Shown here: piece by piece, positions 18,453 to 48,340 of the stretch
How positions within the stretch are numbered: the first letter of the stretch is position 1
Layout of the letters: each line of letters opens with the position of its first letter
Source: Candidatus Bathyarchaeota archaeon
Lineage (GTDB): Archaea; Thermoproteota; Bathyarchaeia; Bathyarchaeales; Bathycorpusculaceae
NCBI GenBank assembly: GCA_963832745.1
Contig: CAWHVC010000001.1
Coordinates: forward strand, 128,001-192,000
Reading direction: 5' to 3'
Length of the DNA stretch: 64,000 bases
The notes under the pieces: model-generated
Database searches by the model: none
Seen by the model: the letters and a program-made list of their open reading frames with translations, nothing else
What the model was told of the DNA's origin: nothing
Translations under genes and position numbers: made by a program

Positions 18453-18530
18453 TGGTGGACCGTACCGGATTCGAACCGGTGATCTTCGCCGTGTGAAGGC
18501 GACGTCCTAGCCAGACTAGACTAACGGTCC
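18453..18530 (-). tRNA. tRNA-Val(CAC)
   Basis: Reverse complement folds as a cloverleaf: GGACCGT/ACGGTCC acceptor, TCGCC-TTCACAC-GGCGA anticodon arm, GGTTCGAATCC T-arm, encoded CCA. Confidence 0.97.
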
Positions 18531-21726: not shown

Positions 21727-21803
21727 GCCGAGGTAGCTCAGCCTGGGAGAGCGCTCGGCTGAAGACCGAGTCGTCGCATGTTCAAACCCTGCCCTCGGCA
21801 CCA
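21727..21803 (+). tRNA. tRNA-Phe(GAA)
   Basis: GCCGAGG/CCTCGGC acceptor, CTCGG-CTGAAGA-CCGAG anticodon arm, encoded CCA; one T:C mismatch in the T-stem. Confidence 0.95.
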
Positions 21804-43798: not shown

Positions 43799-44291
43799 GT
43801 AATTGAAAAGCTGCTTTTCTTTTGTTTTTTGCAGCTTTTTTATATGTTCTTTTTTTGTCATATTATTTTTTCAAACATATTCTTTGCTTTGTAACTTAGA
43901 CAAAACAGGGTTTTTAAGATTTTTAACTGTTCTACAGGTTGAAAAAATATGGTTTTAGATGGGTTTTGTTCCATTTTTTCTTGTCTGCAAGGGTTGACTT
44001 GGCTGGGTTTTGATTGTTTTTGATGGTAAAAACTAGTTGTTTTATGTGTAGGCTGTCTTGAGTCATGGGTTTTTTTAGTTTGTGTTTTTCTGTTGTACAG
44101 TTGCTTTTGGTTGCTCTTTTTGGGTTGAATTCTTGTTTTTTGTGTGTTTTTTGCGTTTGAATGTTCATTTTTCGTATGCTTGGGTTATGTCTTGTTATTG
44201 CTGTATTATGTCTTAACATTTAAATAAAGTATAGTCTGTATAAAGATTCGCTAATCAAACAGGCTGAAAAATAAAAAAGGAGTAGGAGAAA

Positions 44292-44723: not shown

Positions 44724-45032
44724 CTATTGGTCTATAACCATTAGAGTTAATGTTGTTTTGATGGTTGAAAGATTTTTGATGCGGCTAAAAATTTGTTCTT
44801 TTAGGTAATCTATGGATTCTCCGCTTACTTTTGCTATTATGTCATATGCCCCTTTGGAAGGATAAACTTCGCTTACCCCTTCTATCCGTCTTATGTCTTC
44901 TATGGCTGAATCGTATGTTTCCGGTTCAGTATTAATAAAAACATATGCATGCCGTTGAGGCTTAATTTTTACTGATTCAATTATTGATGAATTAGCCTCT
45001 ATCTGGTTTTCTTGATAAAAAATAGTTTCCAT
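44724..45032 (-). CDS. Stand-alone Lrp/AsnC ligand-binding (RAM) domain protein
   Basis: AYVFIN..., IEGVSEVY..KGAYDIIAKV, TTLTL. Confidence 0.85.
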   Translation of the reverse strand: METIFYQENQIEANSSIIESVKIKPQRHAYVFINTEPETYDSAIEDIRRIEGVSEVYPSKGAYDIIAKVSGESIDYLKEQIFSRIKNLSTIKTTLTLMVIDQ

Positions 45033-45155
45033 AAAATAGTCACTTCACAACAAAATTATTATTAAAAATATTTCTTTGAATACGCTATTAAAGCTAAGTT
45101 ACTGCATTGCGACTACAACAAATCCATATAACACTTCATTGCCTTGAATTAGAAT

Positions 45156-45322
45156 GCAGCTGGGAAAGCTGGGGCTTGGCGAAACCGGCTTTTTCGAAGG
45201 CACAAAGAAAGCCGCGTAACCGCGTCCATTCGCAAAATAATTTTTTTGCCATCAGGGAGGTAGAAAGAAGGAATGGAGCTTGACTTGTGCTTTCTTGTAA
45301 AGAGCCAAGCCCAACTCAACTG
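45156..45322 (+). ncRNA. Candidate structured ncRNA with pseudoknot (unknown family)
   Basis: Terminal helix, 9-bp, 9-bp, 7-bp and 6-bp stems and a 10-bp loop-distal pairing; CATATAA box at 45125-45131. Confidence 0.55.
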
Positions 45323-45324
45323 TG

Positions 45325-45867
45325 TTATTGTTTTGGTGTTTTGATTTTTATCAGCGAGACTATTTCGTATTTGTCGCCGAGCAGCTTTCTAGGGTCAAGA
45401 TATTCCAGTTCAATTAAAAAGCCTAAGCCGACGACGTTTCCACCAAGTTTTTCGATAAGGTCAATGTTTGCTTTAATTGTTCCACCCGTTGCGAGCAGGT
45501 CGTCAATGAGTAGGACGTTTTGGCCTTTGTTGATTGCGTCTTCTTGGATTTGGATTGTGTCTGCTTCGTATTCTTTTTGGTAAGTGTAGTCTATGCATTT
45601 GAAGGGTAGTTTGCCTTTTTTGCGGATTGGAACGAAACCTGCGCCGAGTTCAATTGCGAGGGGTGCTCCGAAAATGAATCCTCTTGCCTCGTTTGAGACG
45701 ACAAGGTCAATTTTTTTGCCTTCAAAGCGTTCTGCGAGTTGCTTGATTGTTTCTTTGAAGTATGCTGGGTCTTTAAGGATTGGTGCAATGTCCCAGAAGC
45801 ATACTCCTTTAAAGTCTGTGCATCGAAGTTTAGCTCTTATGTCAATATTTTTTTCAGATTTGTTCAT
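45325..45867 (-). CDS. apt: Adenine phosphoribosyltransferase
   Basis: EARGFIFG, IRKKGKLP, VLLIDDLLATGGT. Confidence 0.96.
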   Translation of the reverse strand: MNKSEKNIDIRAKLRCTDFKGVCFWDIAPILKDPAYFKETIKQLAERFEGKKIDLVVSNEARGFIFGAPLAIELGAGFVPIRKKGKLPFKCIDYTYQKEYEADTIQIQEDAINKGQNVLLIDDLLATGGTIKANIDLIEKLGGNVVGLGFLIELEYLDPRKLLGDKYEIVSLIKIKTPKQ

Positions 45868-45884
45868 GATTTTTTTCTCCGTGG

Positions 45885-46685
45885 TTATTCTTTTTGTGCG
45901 AATGCTCCGTCAAGCGCGTGTTTGCAGTTGCATGCTTGCTCTGAGGGTATGGCTTTGACGGTTTCGGCGATGATTTTTTTAACATTTTCAATGTTGGCTG
46001 TCATTACTCTAACGATGTCGCCGATGCATACTGGATGGTCTTTCCAAACGTCGTAATCAGTTACTAATGACATGTTTGCAAAGCAGATTTCGGCTTCTCT
46101 GGCGAGAATGCATTCGGGGACAAGGGTCATGCCAACGATGTCTGCGCCCCATCCGCGGAACATTTTTGATTCTGCTTTTGTGCTGAATCTTGGGCCTTCT
46201 ATGCAGACGTATGTTCCGGTTTCGTGATGTTTAATTTTGAGTTTTTTTGCAACGTCAATTACGATTTTGCGGAGTTCTGGGCATGTGGGTTCAGCGACTC
46301 CGATGTGGCAAACCTTTTTTTCTGCCATTGTGTAAAATGATTGTTCACGTTTTGTGGTTCGGTCAATAAATTGGTCAACAACAACCATGTCTCCCGGCTC
46401 GTATTCTTCACGCAGTGAGCCAACGGTTGAGGATGATAAAATGTGTTTAACTCCCAGGCTTTTTAGAGCCCAAATGTTTGCACGTACAGGGATGTCTGTT
46501 GGCCTAATTGTGTGTTTTTTTCCGTGTCTTGGTAGAAACGCTACGGATTTGCCGCCCAATTCACCGATGGTGATTGCGTCTGAGGGTTTTCCGTATGGTG
46601 TATCTACTGTGACTGACTTTATGTTACTGAAAAGTTTTGGGTCATCAAGACCTGTTCCGCCGATAATTCCAATTTCTGCTTGCAT
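45885..46685 (-). CDS. mtnP: S-methyl-5'-thioadenosine phosphorylase
   Basis: IGIIGGTG, FLPRHG, EGPRFSTKAES, GMT.VPE, VTDYD. Confidence 0.95.
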   Translation of the reverse strand: MQAEIGIIGGTGLDDPKLFSNIKSVTVDTPYGKPSDAITIGELGGKSVAFLPRHGKKHTIRPTDIPVRANIWALKSLGVKHILSSSTVGSLREEYEPGDMVVVDQFIDRTTKREQSFYTMAEKKVCHIGVAEPTCPELRKIVIDVAKKLKIKHHETGTYVCIEGPRFSTKAESKMFRGWGADIVGMTLVPECILAREAEICFANMSLVTDYDVWKDHPVCIGDIVRVMTANIENVKKIIAETVKAIPSEQACNCKHALDGAFAQKE

Positions 46686-47095: not shown

Positions 47096-48340
47096 ATGGA
47101 CAGGCGAGTTGGATTTTTTGCTTGGATACTTGTTTTTCATTTAGTTTTATTATCCATGGTACTTTTGGAAACAGGTAACGTTTCGGCTTCTTCTGATTAT
47201 TGGGTAACTATCGCTTCAGTCCCAACAAACGCAAGTGAGTCAATCGGTGTTCTCCCAACTTTCGGCAACATTTGGGCTGCATCATTAAATGAGGAAATCT
47301 ACTGTTTTGGAGGAATTAATCAACATCAACGCTCAGGCGGCTACGTGTGGTATGGTATAAGTGAAAAATATAACCTTGAAACTGGTAAATGGACGACAAT
47401 AACGTCGCCTTCAAGTGGCTTCATAGCCTTAGTCACATGTCAAAACAAAATTTATTCCATAGGGGCGCAAACCCAAGTGTATGACCCATCAACAGACGCT
47501 TGGTTAAATAGAACCCAAATGCCCGAGTCACTCCTTAAAGTAAATGCCAATGTAGTGGACGATAAAATCTACGTTATAAGTGGCGCAAAATCTGCTAGCT
47601 TAGGCGGCGTCTACAGTTCAGCAGTTAATCAAGTGTATGATCCCTATTTGGATTCTTGGTCAACTATGGCGTCTATTCCAACTCCTGTCGAAGGCTATGC
47701 CTCAGCGGTTTTAGATGGTAAAATCTACATTATAGGTGGCGCTGCCATGTCCCAGGATTATTCAAATCAGGTTGTAAACCTTGTTCAGGTTTTCGATCCT
47801 AAAACTAACCAATGGACTACTGGAACGCCTCTTCCAACTGGGGTTTATGCGGCAGGTGCATGTGCAACAACAGGGTTATTTGCGTCGGAAAAAATCTATG
47901 TGGCAGGTGGGCACCCTCATTATGTTTCTTGGGTAACATCCGCTATTCTCAGTCCGCATGGAACAACTCTTAATCAGATTTATGACCCTATAACTGGAAA
48001 CTGGTCGCTTGGAGCTTCTATGCCTCAACCAAGATGGCAATGCTCCGTTGTCAACGTTAATGATACGCTTTTGGTTGTGGGCGGAGAAAACGGTCCTGCT
48101 GATTCCTCTTTTTACAATAACCCCGAAAAAGTCGAAAAAATAGTCTTAGAAATCGAAAAATACTTTCCAACTGACTATGAGGGTACCTTATCTCTCACGC
48201 CTACTTTAAGCGCCTCAGCATTACTTCCTGATGAAAATACTTACTCACTTTTCGCTACGATTGCCCTCGCTATTGGCTTCGGCATTATTTTTTGTATTTT
48301 ATTTATACTTAAGAGGACACGGAGAGAATCTAATCGTTGA
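47096..48340 (+). CDS. Kelch-repeat surface protein
   Basis: KIY(V/I)(S/G)G...YDP..D.W repeats, signal peptide, C-terminal TM. Confidence 0.9.
   Translation: MDRRVGFFAWILVFHLVLLSMVLLETGNVSASSDYWVTIASVPTNASESIGVLPTFGNIWAASLNEEIYCFGGINQHQRSGGYVWYGISEKYNLETGKWTTITSPSSGFIALVTCQNKIYSIGAQTQVYDPSTDAWLNRTQMPESLLKVNANVVDDKIYVISGAKSASLGGVYSSAVNQVYDPYLDSWSTMASIPTPVEGYASAVLDGKIYIIGGAAMSQDYSNQVVNLVQVFDPKTNQWTTGTPLPTGVYAAGACATTGLFASEKIYVAGGHPHYVSWVTSAILSPHGTTLNQIYDPITGNWSLGASMPQPRWQCSVVNVNDTLLVVGGENGPADSSFYNNPEKVEKIVLEIEKYFPTDYEGTLSLTPTLSASALLPDENTYSLFATIALAIGFGIIFCILFILKRTRRESNR

Follow-up and report, generated by a model that had tools for sequence, protein, structure and literature searches.

A candidate small structured RNA gene convergent to apt in one genus of Bathyarchaeia

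The small RNA (sRNA) 154 of Methanosarcina mazei reportedly has a restricted taxonomic range and folds into several stems. Its gene can be deleted and is thus non-essential, and the deletion altered protein patterns (PMC3177094). Here we analyse a stretch of 64,000 nucleotides from a Candidatus Bathyarchaeota archaeon (assembly GCA_963832745.1, contig CAWHVC010000001.1, positions 128,001 to 192,000; hereafter the window) and describe a candidate structured RNA gene at window positions 45156-45312 of the + strand, in the intergenic region between an open reading frame (ORF) with an Lrp/AsnC domain and apt. The two are alike in being intergenic small RNAs with a promoter of their own (here predicted) and an operator-like element nearby. 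They differ in that the RNA described here has no sequence or Rfam relationship to sRNA154, abuts a convergent gene, has been lost in about half of its genus, and is known from sequence alone.

Three other kinds of RNA invite comparison. Antisense-acting riboswitches have been described in two systems, the S-adenosylmethionine (SAM)/S-box element downstream of ubiG-mccBA in Clostridium acetobutylicum and the cobalamin riboswitch/AspocR of Listeria (PMC2566862 and PMC9943018). They share with our element a structured RNA with its own promoter, a position downstream of and convergent to a metabolic operon, and T-runs between the RNA and the 3' end of the gene; unlike our element, which matches no aptamer class, is archaeal and is restricted to one genus, they belong to known and widespread aptamer classes. 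The orphan 'motif' families of the Rfam type are, like this RNA, defined only by conservation and covariation in an intergenic region, and differ from it in that it is absent from Rfam 15 and comes from Bathyarchaeia. Finally, archaeal H/ACA guide sRNAs likewise form an extended hairpin in which a large internal loop separates the upper stem from a lower one of about 9 bp, and the 3' loop strand plus lower stem span about 14-18 nt in both. A one-hairpin H/ACA RNA is about half the size of this RNA. The ACA box of such RNAs, expected directly 3' of the lower stem and about 14-16 nt from the pocket, has no conserved ACA/ANA counterpart after P2, the closing helix (the triplets there are AAC, AAA, GAA, AUC, GGA and UAA); no Rfam match was found, and no kink-turn (K-turn) or K-loop was recognised by eye (no dedicated search was run), the internal loop between helices P3 and P4 being a symmetric 3x3 loop (AGA opposite GAC). 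In the literature searched, we found no lineage-specific non-coding RNA (ncRNA) described for Bathyarchaeia, and a Bathy-6 genome paper contains no ncRNA terms (PMC11697101).

We put the probability of our whole explanation, a stand-alone structured sRNA gene acting mainly in trans, at roughly 60%, a value that blends the odds of its two components. That this is a real, independently transcribed structured RNA gene we regard as highly probable. That the RNA would act mainly in trans through exposed elements, and not as an antisense switch of apt, is a more tentative proposal, to which we give slightly less than even odds.

The first component draws on the fold and its conservation (features and coordinates are collected in Table 1). 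In the window, the + strand of 45150-45325 folds with -61.5 kcal/mol (z -3.19), and one of 200 shuffled sequences was as stable. We fitted 22 distinct homologues to a covariance-model structure (alignment A4), in which 95.9% of helix cells are paired, compared with 30-46% when the partners are slid out of register. Nine pairs have changed on both sides (21 cells), and none of 500 shuffles reaches the observed covariation score. A plain MAFFT alignment already shows 94.1% of cells paired and 5 covarying pairs, and RNAalifold recovered P1 to P4 unaided. The best-supported fold, as read from these sequences, is fully nested: a 5' hairpin, P1, and a closing helix, P2, followed by P3, P4 and P5. 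Compensatory changes occur in four pairs of P3 (AU/GC/GU, AU/GU/GC, CG/UA/UG and AU/GC), whose pair probabilities in the window are 0.71-0.99. P2 has two pairs changed on both sides, in decayed copies, and P4 one double change (GAGU/GCUC in L042); the GCUU strand of P4 and the A that follows it are invariant in alignment A2. P1, which is present in both the minimum free energy (MFE) and the centroid structures, varies by a U-G pair in one sequence and G-U in two, and P5 varies by G-U and U-G.

A preliminary description of this DNA had already drawn several of these helices. The pairings it listed as GGGCTTGGC with GCCAAGCCC and TCCATTC with GAATGGA are P2 and P5, and the covariation in relatives by which its fold was to be judged is present, including in the 10-bp arm that is P3. 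What changes is how that arm is made. It had been read as a pseudoknot, with the loop of a hairpin CGGCTTTTT (45186-94)/AGAAAGCCG (45206-14) pairing to 45285-94, in a ribozyme-like or guide RNA with an exposed purine 21-mer acting as its guide or template. The window does allow both helices to be drawn, the hairpin duplex is strong there and in L044, L129 and L108 (-10.8 to -12.6 kcal/mol, the only sequences in which it clearly beats shuffles), and a J2/3 junction lengthened as in relatives would ease the strain of an H-type pseudoknot. Across the family, however, the hairpin is 66% paired in register and is weak or absent in L039, L063, L043, L127 and L045 (z >= -0.13). It competes with P4 for the same AAAGC, has probability 0 in the window ensemble, would leave a 1-nt linker for a 10-bp helix there, and costs 5.2 kcal/mol to force over the nested fold. 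Since the loop-donating hairpin fares so poorly and the nested P3/P4 fits all homologues, we favour a reading of P3 as a long-range helix of the ordinary nested kind; relatives with a longer J2/3 may form a pseudoknot, and nothing requires one. The purine tract also varies in sequence and length, and 4 of the 20 sequences lack its GGAGG; such variation does not suit a guide. No ribozyme family of Rfam matches. We judge this pseudoknotted reading the least probable of all those weighed here; nothing points to a ribozyme-like, guide/template or ligand-binding role.

Other details of that drawing fared variously. The two extreme ends, GCAGCTGGG and CTCAACTGT, are 26.8% paired, no better than slid controls, and the 5' end pairs locally instead as CAGCU/AGCUG. 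The GCAAAA/TTTTGC hairpin is present in the window and is not kept in relatives. For the window, the predicted structure pairs the supposedly unpaired 21-mer with the U7 tract. This apical hairpin of U-tract and purine tract is predicted in nearly all sequences and is weak (-8.7 kcal/mol and z -3.07 in the window, family mean z -0.76); the GGAGG of the purine tract occurs in 16 of 20 intact sequences. The U-tract of J2/3 can likewise pair with several purine runs, none of which beats composition-matched shuffles family-wide. We set aside two further pairings, a pseudoknot between the J2/3 U-tract and the purine tract (a perfect 8 bp in some sequences, family mean z -0.32 against shuffles, hence unsupported) and a tertiary pairing between GGCGA and UCGCC, which shows one-sided changes only and for which a G-to-A change in L038 suits a local hairpin better.

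The second line of evidence is a conserved block upstream of the RNA, which we take to be an archaeal promoter with transcription factor B recognition element (BRE) and TATA box from its likeness to the archaeal consensus. The TATA-like box that had been pointed out, CATATAAC, lies within it, is conserved, and stands at promoter distance. Every one of the 20 intact homologues has the block, as ACAACAACAAATCnATATAAnA, ending about 22-23 nt before a conserved TGCAGCU; this distance is fixed and the intervening spacer itself is variable. The decayed copies L048, L049 and G017 carry mutations in the block, and the deletion alleles G030 and G025 retain it.

The block faces the + strand, and the strand is a point on which an alternative has to be weighed, namely that the structure belongs to the - strand, as the 3' untranslated region (UTR) or terminator of the apt mRNA or as a far-upstream leader of the Lrp-domain gene. 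That strand folds well too (-55.7 kcal/mol for the same region, z -3.12), the element comes directly after the apt stop codon, and the helices contain 18 A-C mismatch cells on the + strand; three related sequences have such a mismatch inside P3. G-U cells nonetheless outnumber them, 32 to 18, as the earlier appraisal of the wobble pairs suggested, and by our own count per column and type, with decayed copies left out, the tally is 13 against 5-7 in favour of G-U. Of the 20 intact homologues, 18 fold more stably on the + strand, the average difference being 5.3 kcal/mol. In seven carriers (group B: L108, L040, L042, L063, L043, L118 and L127) an A-rich spacer separates apt from the element, which on the apt strand is a run of up to 10 T after the stop codon, so that the apt transcript would probably end before the element; and the Lrp gene has a conserved TATTAAA block of its own, nearer by. 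Promoter block, G-U pattern and fold energies thus favour the + strand, and we consider an origin on the - strand very unlikely. The claim of a stand-alone, + strand structured ncRNA outside Rfam is supported, as are the promoter-like placing of the TATA box and the conservation, with covariation, in relatives.

Where the transcript ends bears on a different alternative. In each of the 20 carriers, 12-33 nt separate the 3' end of P2 from the apt stop codon. The first run of five or more T after P2 starts at +10 to +13 in 9 carriers and at +18 to +43 in another 5; in the remaining 6 it comes only beyond +139. From this spacing and these positions the transcript probably overlaps the 3' end of apt, perhaps extensively in some species. 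In the window subgroup, the apt ORF extends about 20 nt further toward the RNA than in most relatives, and the candidate terminating T-runs consequently fall inside the last apt codons (45325-45349).

Such an arrangement raises the question of whether the RNA acts in cis, as an antisense regulator of the apt-mtap operon that it converges on. It could then be an antisense-acting riboswitch, whose body would sense a metabolite or protein and set the choice between stopping at the T-runs and reading through into apt to give antisense RNA. Its geometry matches both antisense-acting riboswitches cited above, the proximity to the apt stop codon is uniform, and read-through into apt is likely in the 6 of 20 carriers in which no T5 or longer run occurs for at least 139 nt. 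The junction nucleotides are strongly conserved, and a switch is conceivable in that GCUUUU of J2/3 can alternatively pair with the 5' strands of P3 or P4. Against this, Rfam finds no known aptamer in the window or at nine homologous loci. Metabolite riboswitches are usually widespread, and this RNA is found in one genus only, in which it was lost at least four times while apt-mtap stayed; 15 other genera have the mtap-apt pair without the element. Adjacency within one genus is inherited synteny and not independent evidence, and the alternative pairings are low-complexity U/purine matches that no covariation separates. We therefore consider a cis-antisense role unlikely. Its most specific form is less probable again: a new aptamer class, an archaeal antisense-acting riboswitch that would bind adenine, methylthioadenosine (MTA) or phosphoribosyl pyrophosphate (PRPP) and gate read-through into apt-mtap, with antisense transcription shutting the salvage genes and the pairing of GCUUUU with P3 or P4 as the switch. 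The same facts undercut the significance once attached to a core purine-salvage neighbourhood, since the link amounts to synteny within one genus and the RNA was repeatedly lost while apt stayed.

We now consider whether the element belongs to a known class of RNA or encodes a peptide. Across the whole window, Rfam 15 reports only two tRNAs, located elsewhere (18456-18530, - strand, and 21727-21800, + strand), which are its only gathering-level matches in the 64 kb. At the locus itself (44950-45450, E up to 10) nothing matches the RNA, and two unrelated weak matches lie upstream at 44961-45037; nine homologous loci (E up to 5) likewise gave no match at the RNA, in agreement with the initial impression that the element falls outside common families. 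This holds for the riboswitch, ribozyme and sRNA classes of Rfam 15, none of whose covariance models matches the element, and for tRNA and transfer-messenger RNA (tmRNA), of which ARAGORN finds 0 genes in 44900-45500. Archaeal RNase P RNA (RF00373) and signal recognition particle (SRP) RNA (RF01857), or reduced forms of them, were rejected as well: neither matches at the locus, and the genome has its copies elsewhere, at C1:258727-259030 (185 bits) and on contig C2 (155.9 bits), respectively. No C box (RUGAUGA) or D box (CUGA) is conserved in A4 on inspection by eye.

As for coding potential, the lengths of insertions and deletions in J2/3, J4/5 and J3/2 are not divisible by three. Only one frame has both a Shine-Dalgarno (SD) motif and an AUG, the conserved one within GAAUGG; it stays open through 23 codons in the window and L035 and is stopped after 3-9 codons in 7 of 10 homologues read (among them L037, L040, L042, L043, L045 and L063; the exceptions are the window, L035 and L118). 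These two observations together indicate that the element is not coding. A small ORF or type I toxin mRNA was rejected on the same grounds, as no small ORF is conserved behind a sequestered SD and the frames are broken. The RNA family is probably one not previously described, and it is not in Rfam 15.

The distribution of the RNA is narrow. A BLASTN search of 60 related genomes gave clear matches in 13, all of the same genus, with 71-92% identity over about 160 nt. A covariance model built from 12 sequences (R1) found, in 41 genomes of the genus, 13 full-length copies of at least 142 bits (the window included), a partial copy of 60 bits (G013) and weak, shortened copies of 35-40 bits (G001, G028 and G009). 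Altogether these 41 genomes comprise 13 with an intact copy, 7 with a decayed or partial one, 18 with apt and no trace of the RNA, and 3 without an apt match; the element is single-copy in its own genome. A pattern scan of public genomes, one per species, followed by R1 confirmed at least 13 among the 80 loci listed. Eleven of the 13 have Bathyarchaeota or Bathyarchaeia in their titles, with 'Bathy6' in two; the others are labelled 'uncultured archaeon' and 'Methanocella sp.'. This last (L108, 1739-1918, - strand) is a contig of a metagenome-assembled genome (MAG) with a full-length, 172-bit copy, and is probably mis-binned or mislabelled. At the level of the family, 2 of 151 genomes across 70 genera matched, both in genus g1 and none outside it; a scan of the class gave only a 25-bit match (G239) inside an ORF with many non-standard pairs, which we judged spurious. 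With filters off, none of the apt loci of 15 other genera has the element (0/15); these keep the mtap-apt pair and have neither an Lrp neighbour nor the promoter motif. None of 11 pattern matches in viral contigs was confirmed. From these sequences the RNA appears restricted to one genus of Bathyarchaeia, whose relatives carry Bathy-6 labels in their records.

Within the genus the RNA has a history of loss. We retrieved the DNA after apt for 20 genus genomes that have apt and no R1 match, and with the filters of R1 off the only match in these 20 loci was a faint one of 13.5 bits (G209). In G010, G023, G030 and G014 the promoter block on the Lrp side is kept and the RNA is missing; G025 has an internal deletion at the RNA locus, other sequence replaces the RNA in G208 and G022, the PadR gene stands directly beside apt in G033, G018, G006 and G024, and G017 keeps only the last 45 nt or so of the RNA. 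A tree of apt and mtap, rooted with five other genera, represents these two local genes and not the species. It requires 7 changes of the 'intact' state, at least 4 of them forced by well-supported branches, and has intact copies on either side of its basal split. The simplest reading is that the RNA was present in the ancestor of the genus and then lost repeatedly, and its repeated loss implies that it is dispensable. An origin as a mobile element was rejected, with no flanking repeats and no viral copies found.

The same history could describe a neutral or decaying relic, an old insertion that arrived with the Lrp-domain gene and whose conservation reflects short divergence time only. Such a relic would be genus-restricted, as this RNA is, and would leave the decayed copies seen in 7 of 41 genomes, the absence in 18, and the independent state changes on the local tree. 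Intact carriers, however, keep their helices by compensatory and wobble changes while the adjoining spacers (TATA-to-start, 3' tail and the J2/3 insertion) vary freely. The RNA is 71-78% identical at the nucleotide level, beside an apt protein that is only 65-78% identical between most of these genomes, and this is too conserved for neutral intergenic DNA; the lack of flanking repeats and of viral copies (0/11) speaks against an insertion as well. We think there is only a very slight chance that the element is such a relic.

Having set out these alternatives, we return to the stand-alone sRNA gene and how it might work. The gene would be about 160-190 nt long and transcribed on the + strand from its own BRE/TATA promoter with a start near G45156, heading convergently to apt and probably stopping where T-runs lie, at the 3' end of apt or a little way into it. 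The body of the RNA would comprise the P1 hairpin and then one long irregular hairpin closed by P2, with, in order, P2, a large asymmetric internal loop, P3, a 3x3 loop with conserved GA and RA, P4, a junction and P5; at its tip, some 40 nt of apical region would contain an A-U(5-7)-G tract together with a purine tract rich in GGAGG. The compact body closed by P1 and P2 may make the RNA stable, and the conserved unpaired parts (GAAA after P2, the GA/RA of the 3x3 loop, the U-tract, UCGCC and the purine tract) may bind a partner. Candidate partners are a protein, for example an Sm-like protein on the U-tract, or a pyrimidine-rich RNA, and the role would be that of a non-essential regulatory sRNA or ribonucleoprotein (RNP). 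The GGAGG(U) of the purine tract is complementary to the 3' end of 16S rRNA, ...CACCUCCU (also given as ...GGAUCACCUCCU), and SD-like motifs precede 8 of 41 long ORFs compared with 2% of random sites.

Several observations count against this explanation and temper it. Alignment A4, having been fitted to the model structure, favours that structure; most helices barely vary, P3 supplies most of the covariation, and the sequences come from closely related members of a single genus. The apical pairings are statistically indistinguishable from what base composition permits. The A-C cells and the stable fold of the - strand given above belong here too, as do the family mean z of -3.24 for the - strand beside -3.65 for the + strand and the lineage of L037, L039 and L041, whose internal C-A in P3 is a G-U on the - strand. 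The carriers that have no nearby T5 run could read through and make apt antisense RNA, and repeated loss is equally expected of a decaying relic. Metatranscriptome contigs from 3 runs of one study cover only 45448-45900, that is apt/mtap of a relative, and nothing over the RNA; they differ from the window by 9-23 each and are uninformative either way on its transcription. Finally, the proposed trans-acting mechanism is drawn from anatomy.

Table 1. Features of the RNA locus in window coordinates.
Feature	Position	Strand	Remarks
Promoter block ACTACAACAAATCCATATAACA	45112-45133	+	A-rich BRE-like part and TATA box CATATAAC (45125-32)
Predicted transcription start	45156 (G after T), +/-2 nt	+	from TATA spacing and conserved (A/G)TGCAGCT
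P1, 5' hairpin CAGCU-GGGAA-AGCUG	45157-45171 (45157-61/45167-71)	+	100% of cells paired, 22 distinct sequences
P2, closing helix, 5' strand GGGCUUGGC (= GGGCTTGGC), 3' strand GCCAAGCCC	45172-80/45304-12	+	98% paired
J2/3 GAAACCGGCUUUUUC	45181-45195	+	conserved GAAA and U-tract; 4-10 nt insertion in relatives
P3, 5' strand GAAGGCACAA, 3' strand TTGTGCTTTC (also given as UUGUGCUUUC)	45196-205/45285-94	+	93.9% paired
P4, 5' strand AAGC, 3' strand GCUU	45209-12/45278-81	+	94.2% paired
P4 3' strand and following conserved RAM	45278-45284	+	RAM in 3x3 internal loop (AGA opposite GAC)
Small hairpin CGCG-UAAC-CGCG within J4/5	45213-45224	+	specific to window subgroup; in MFE structure; insertion absent from most homologues
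P5, 5' strand (U)CCAUUC, 3' strand GAAUGGA	45225-31/45271-77 (helix 45226-31/45271-76)	+	93.8% paired
Apical region L5	45232-45270	+	A-U7-G tract (45240-48), conserved (U)GCC-AUC, purine tract with GGAGG (45256-60)
3' tail with T-runs	45313-45349	+	TTTT at 45331-34 and 45340-43, TTTTT at 45345-49; probable termination zone, predicted 3' end; covers apt stop codon and last apt codons, antisense
ORF, 102 aa, Lrp/AsnC ligand-binding domain	44724-45032	-	
apt	45325-45867	-	stop codon 45325-27
mtap	45885-46685	-	follows apt

At homologous loci with checkable neighbours the element always adjoins the 3' end of apt-mtap, and in most the Lrp-domain gene lies on the other side; a PadR gene stands further left of that gene. 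We rejected a co-occurrence with the Lrp-domain gene, given that the carriers L003 and L005 have no Lrp neighbour in the locus and that non-carriers (G010, G023, G030 and others) keep the gene. Between the divergent Lrp-domain gene and the RNA promoter, window 45085-45119 holds a conserved block, CTATTAAAnCTnnGTTRCTG...ACAACAAC, with a TATTAAA that may be the - strand TATA box of the Lrp gene and an imperfect inverted repeat GTTG..CAAC. The block is kept even in species without the RNA and is for that reason probably the promoter or operator of the Lrp gene. On the other side of the RNA, a family-wide query with apt (E up to 1e-20) found the gene in only 16 of 60 other genera (loci L172-L187), directly after mtap in 15 of 15 loci; its identity to the window apt is 59-70% in these genera, barely below the 65-78% within the genus. 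Two regions further off also drew attention. About 490 nt at 43800-44290 have a strong skew of G over C and T over A (GC skew reaching 0.49, AT skew falling to -0.72) and no convincing gene except a lysine-rich ORF of 95 aa (43932-44219, - strand). The protein of 414 aa encoded at 47096-48340 (+ strand) has Kelch repeats, a signal-like segment at its N-terminus and a hydrophobic anchor at its C-terminus, and looks unusual for an archaeon.

As it stands, this is an ordinary orphan sRNA: real, a new family, narrow in range and dispensable. The family is new, yet the kind, a lineage-restricted archaeal sRNA, is already known. Were the antisense-switch reading true, it would be the first such case in Archaea. 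With its predicted promoter and a fold supported by covariation, the RNA family supplies a model for use in annotation, and the series from intact to decayed to deleted copies is a natural presence/absence series for comparative transcriptomics. Bathyarchaeia are described as abundant anaerobic archaea of sediments and soils, and the RNA offers a handle on RNA-based regulation in an archaeal group otherwise represented, in the literature searched, by MAG and enrichment studies.

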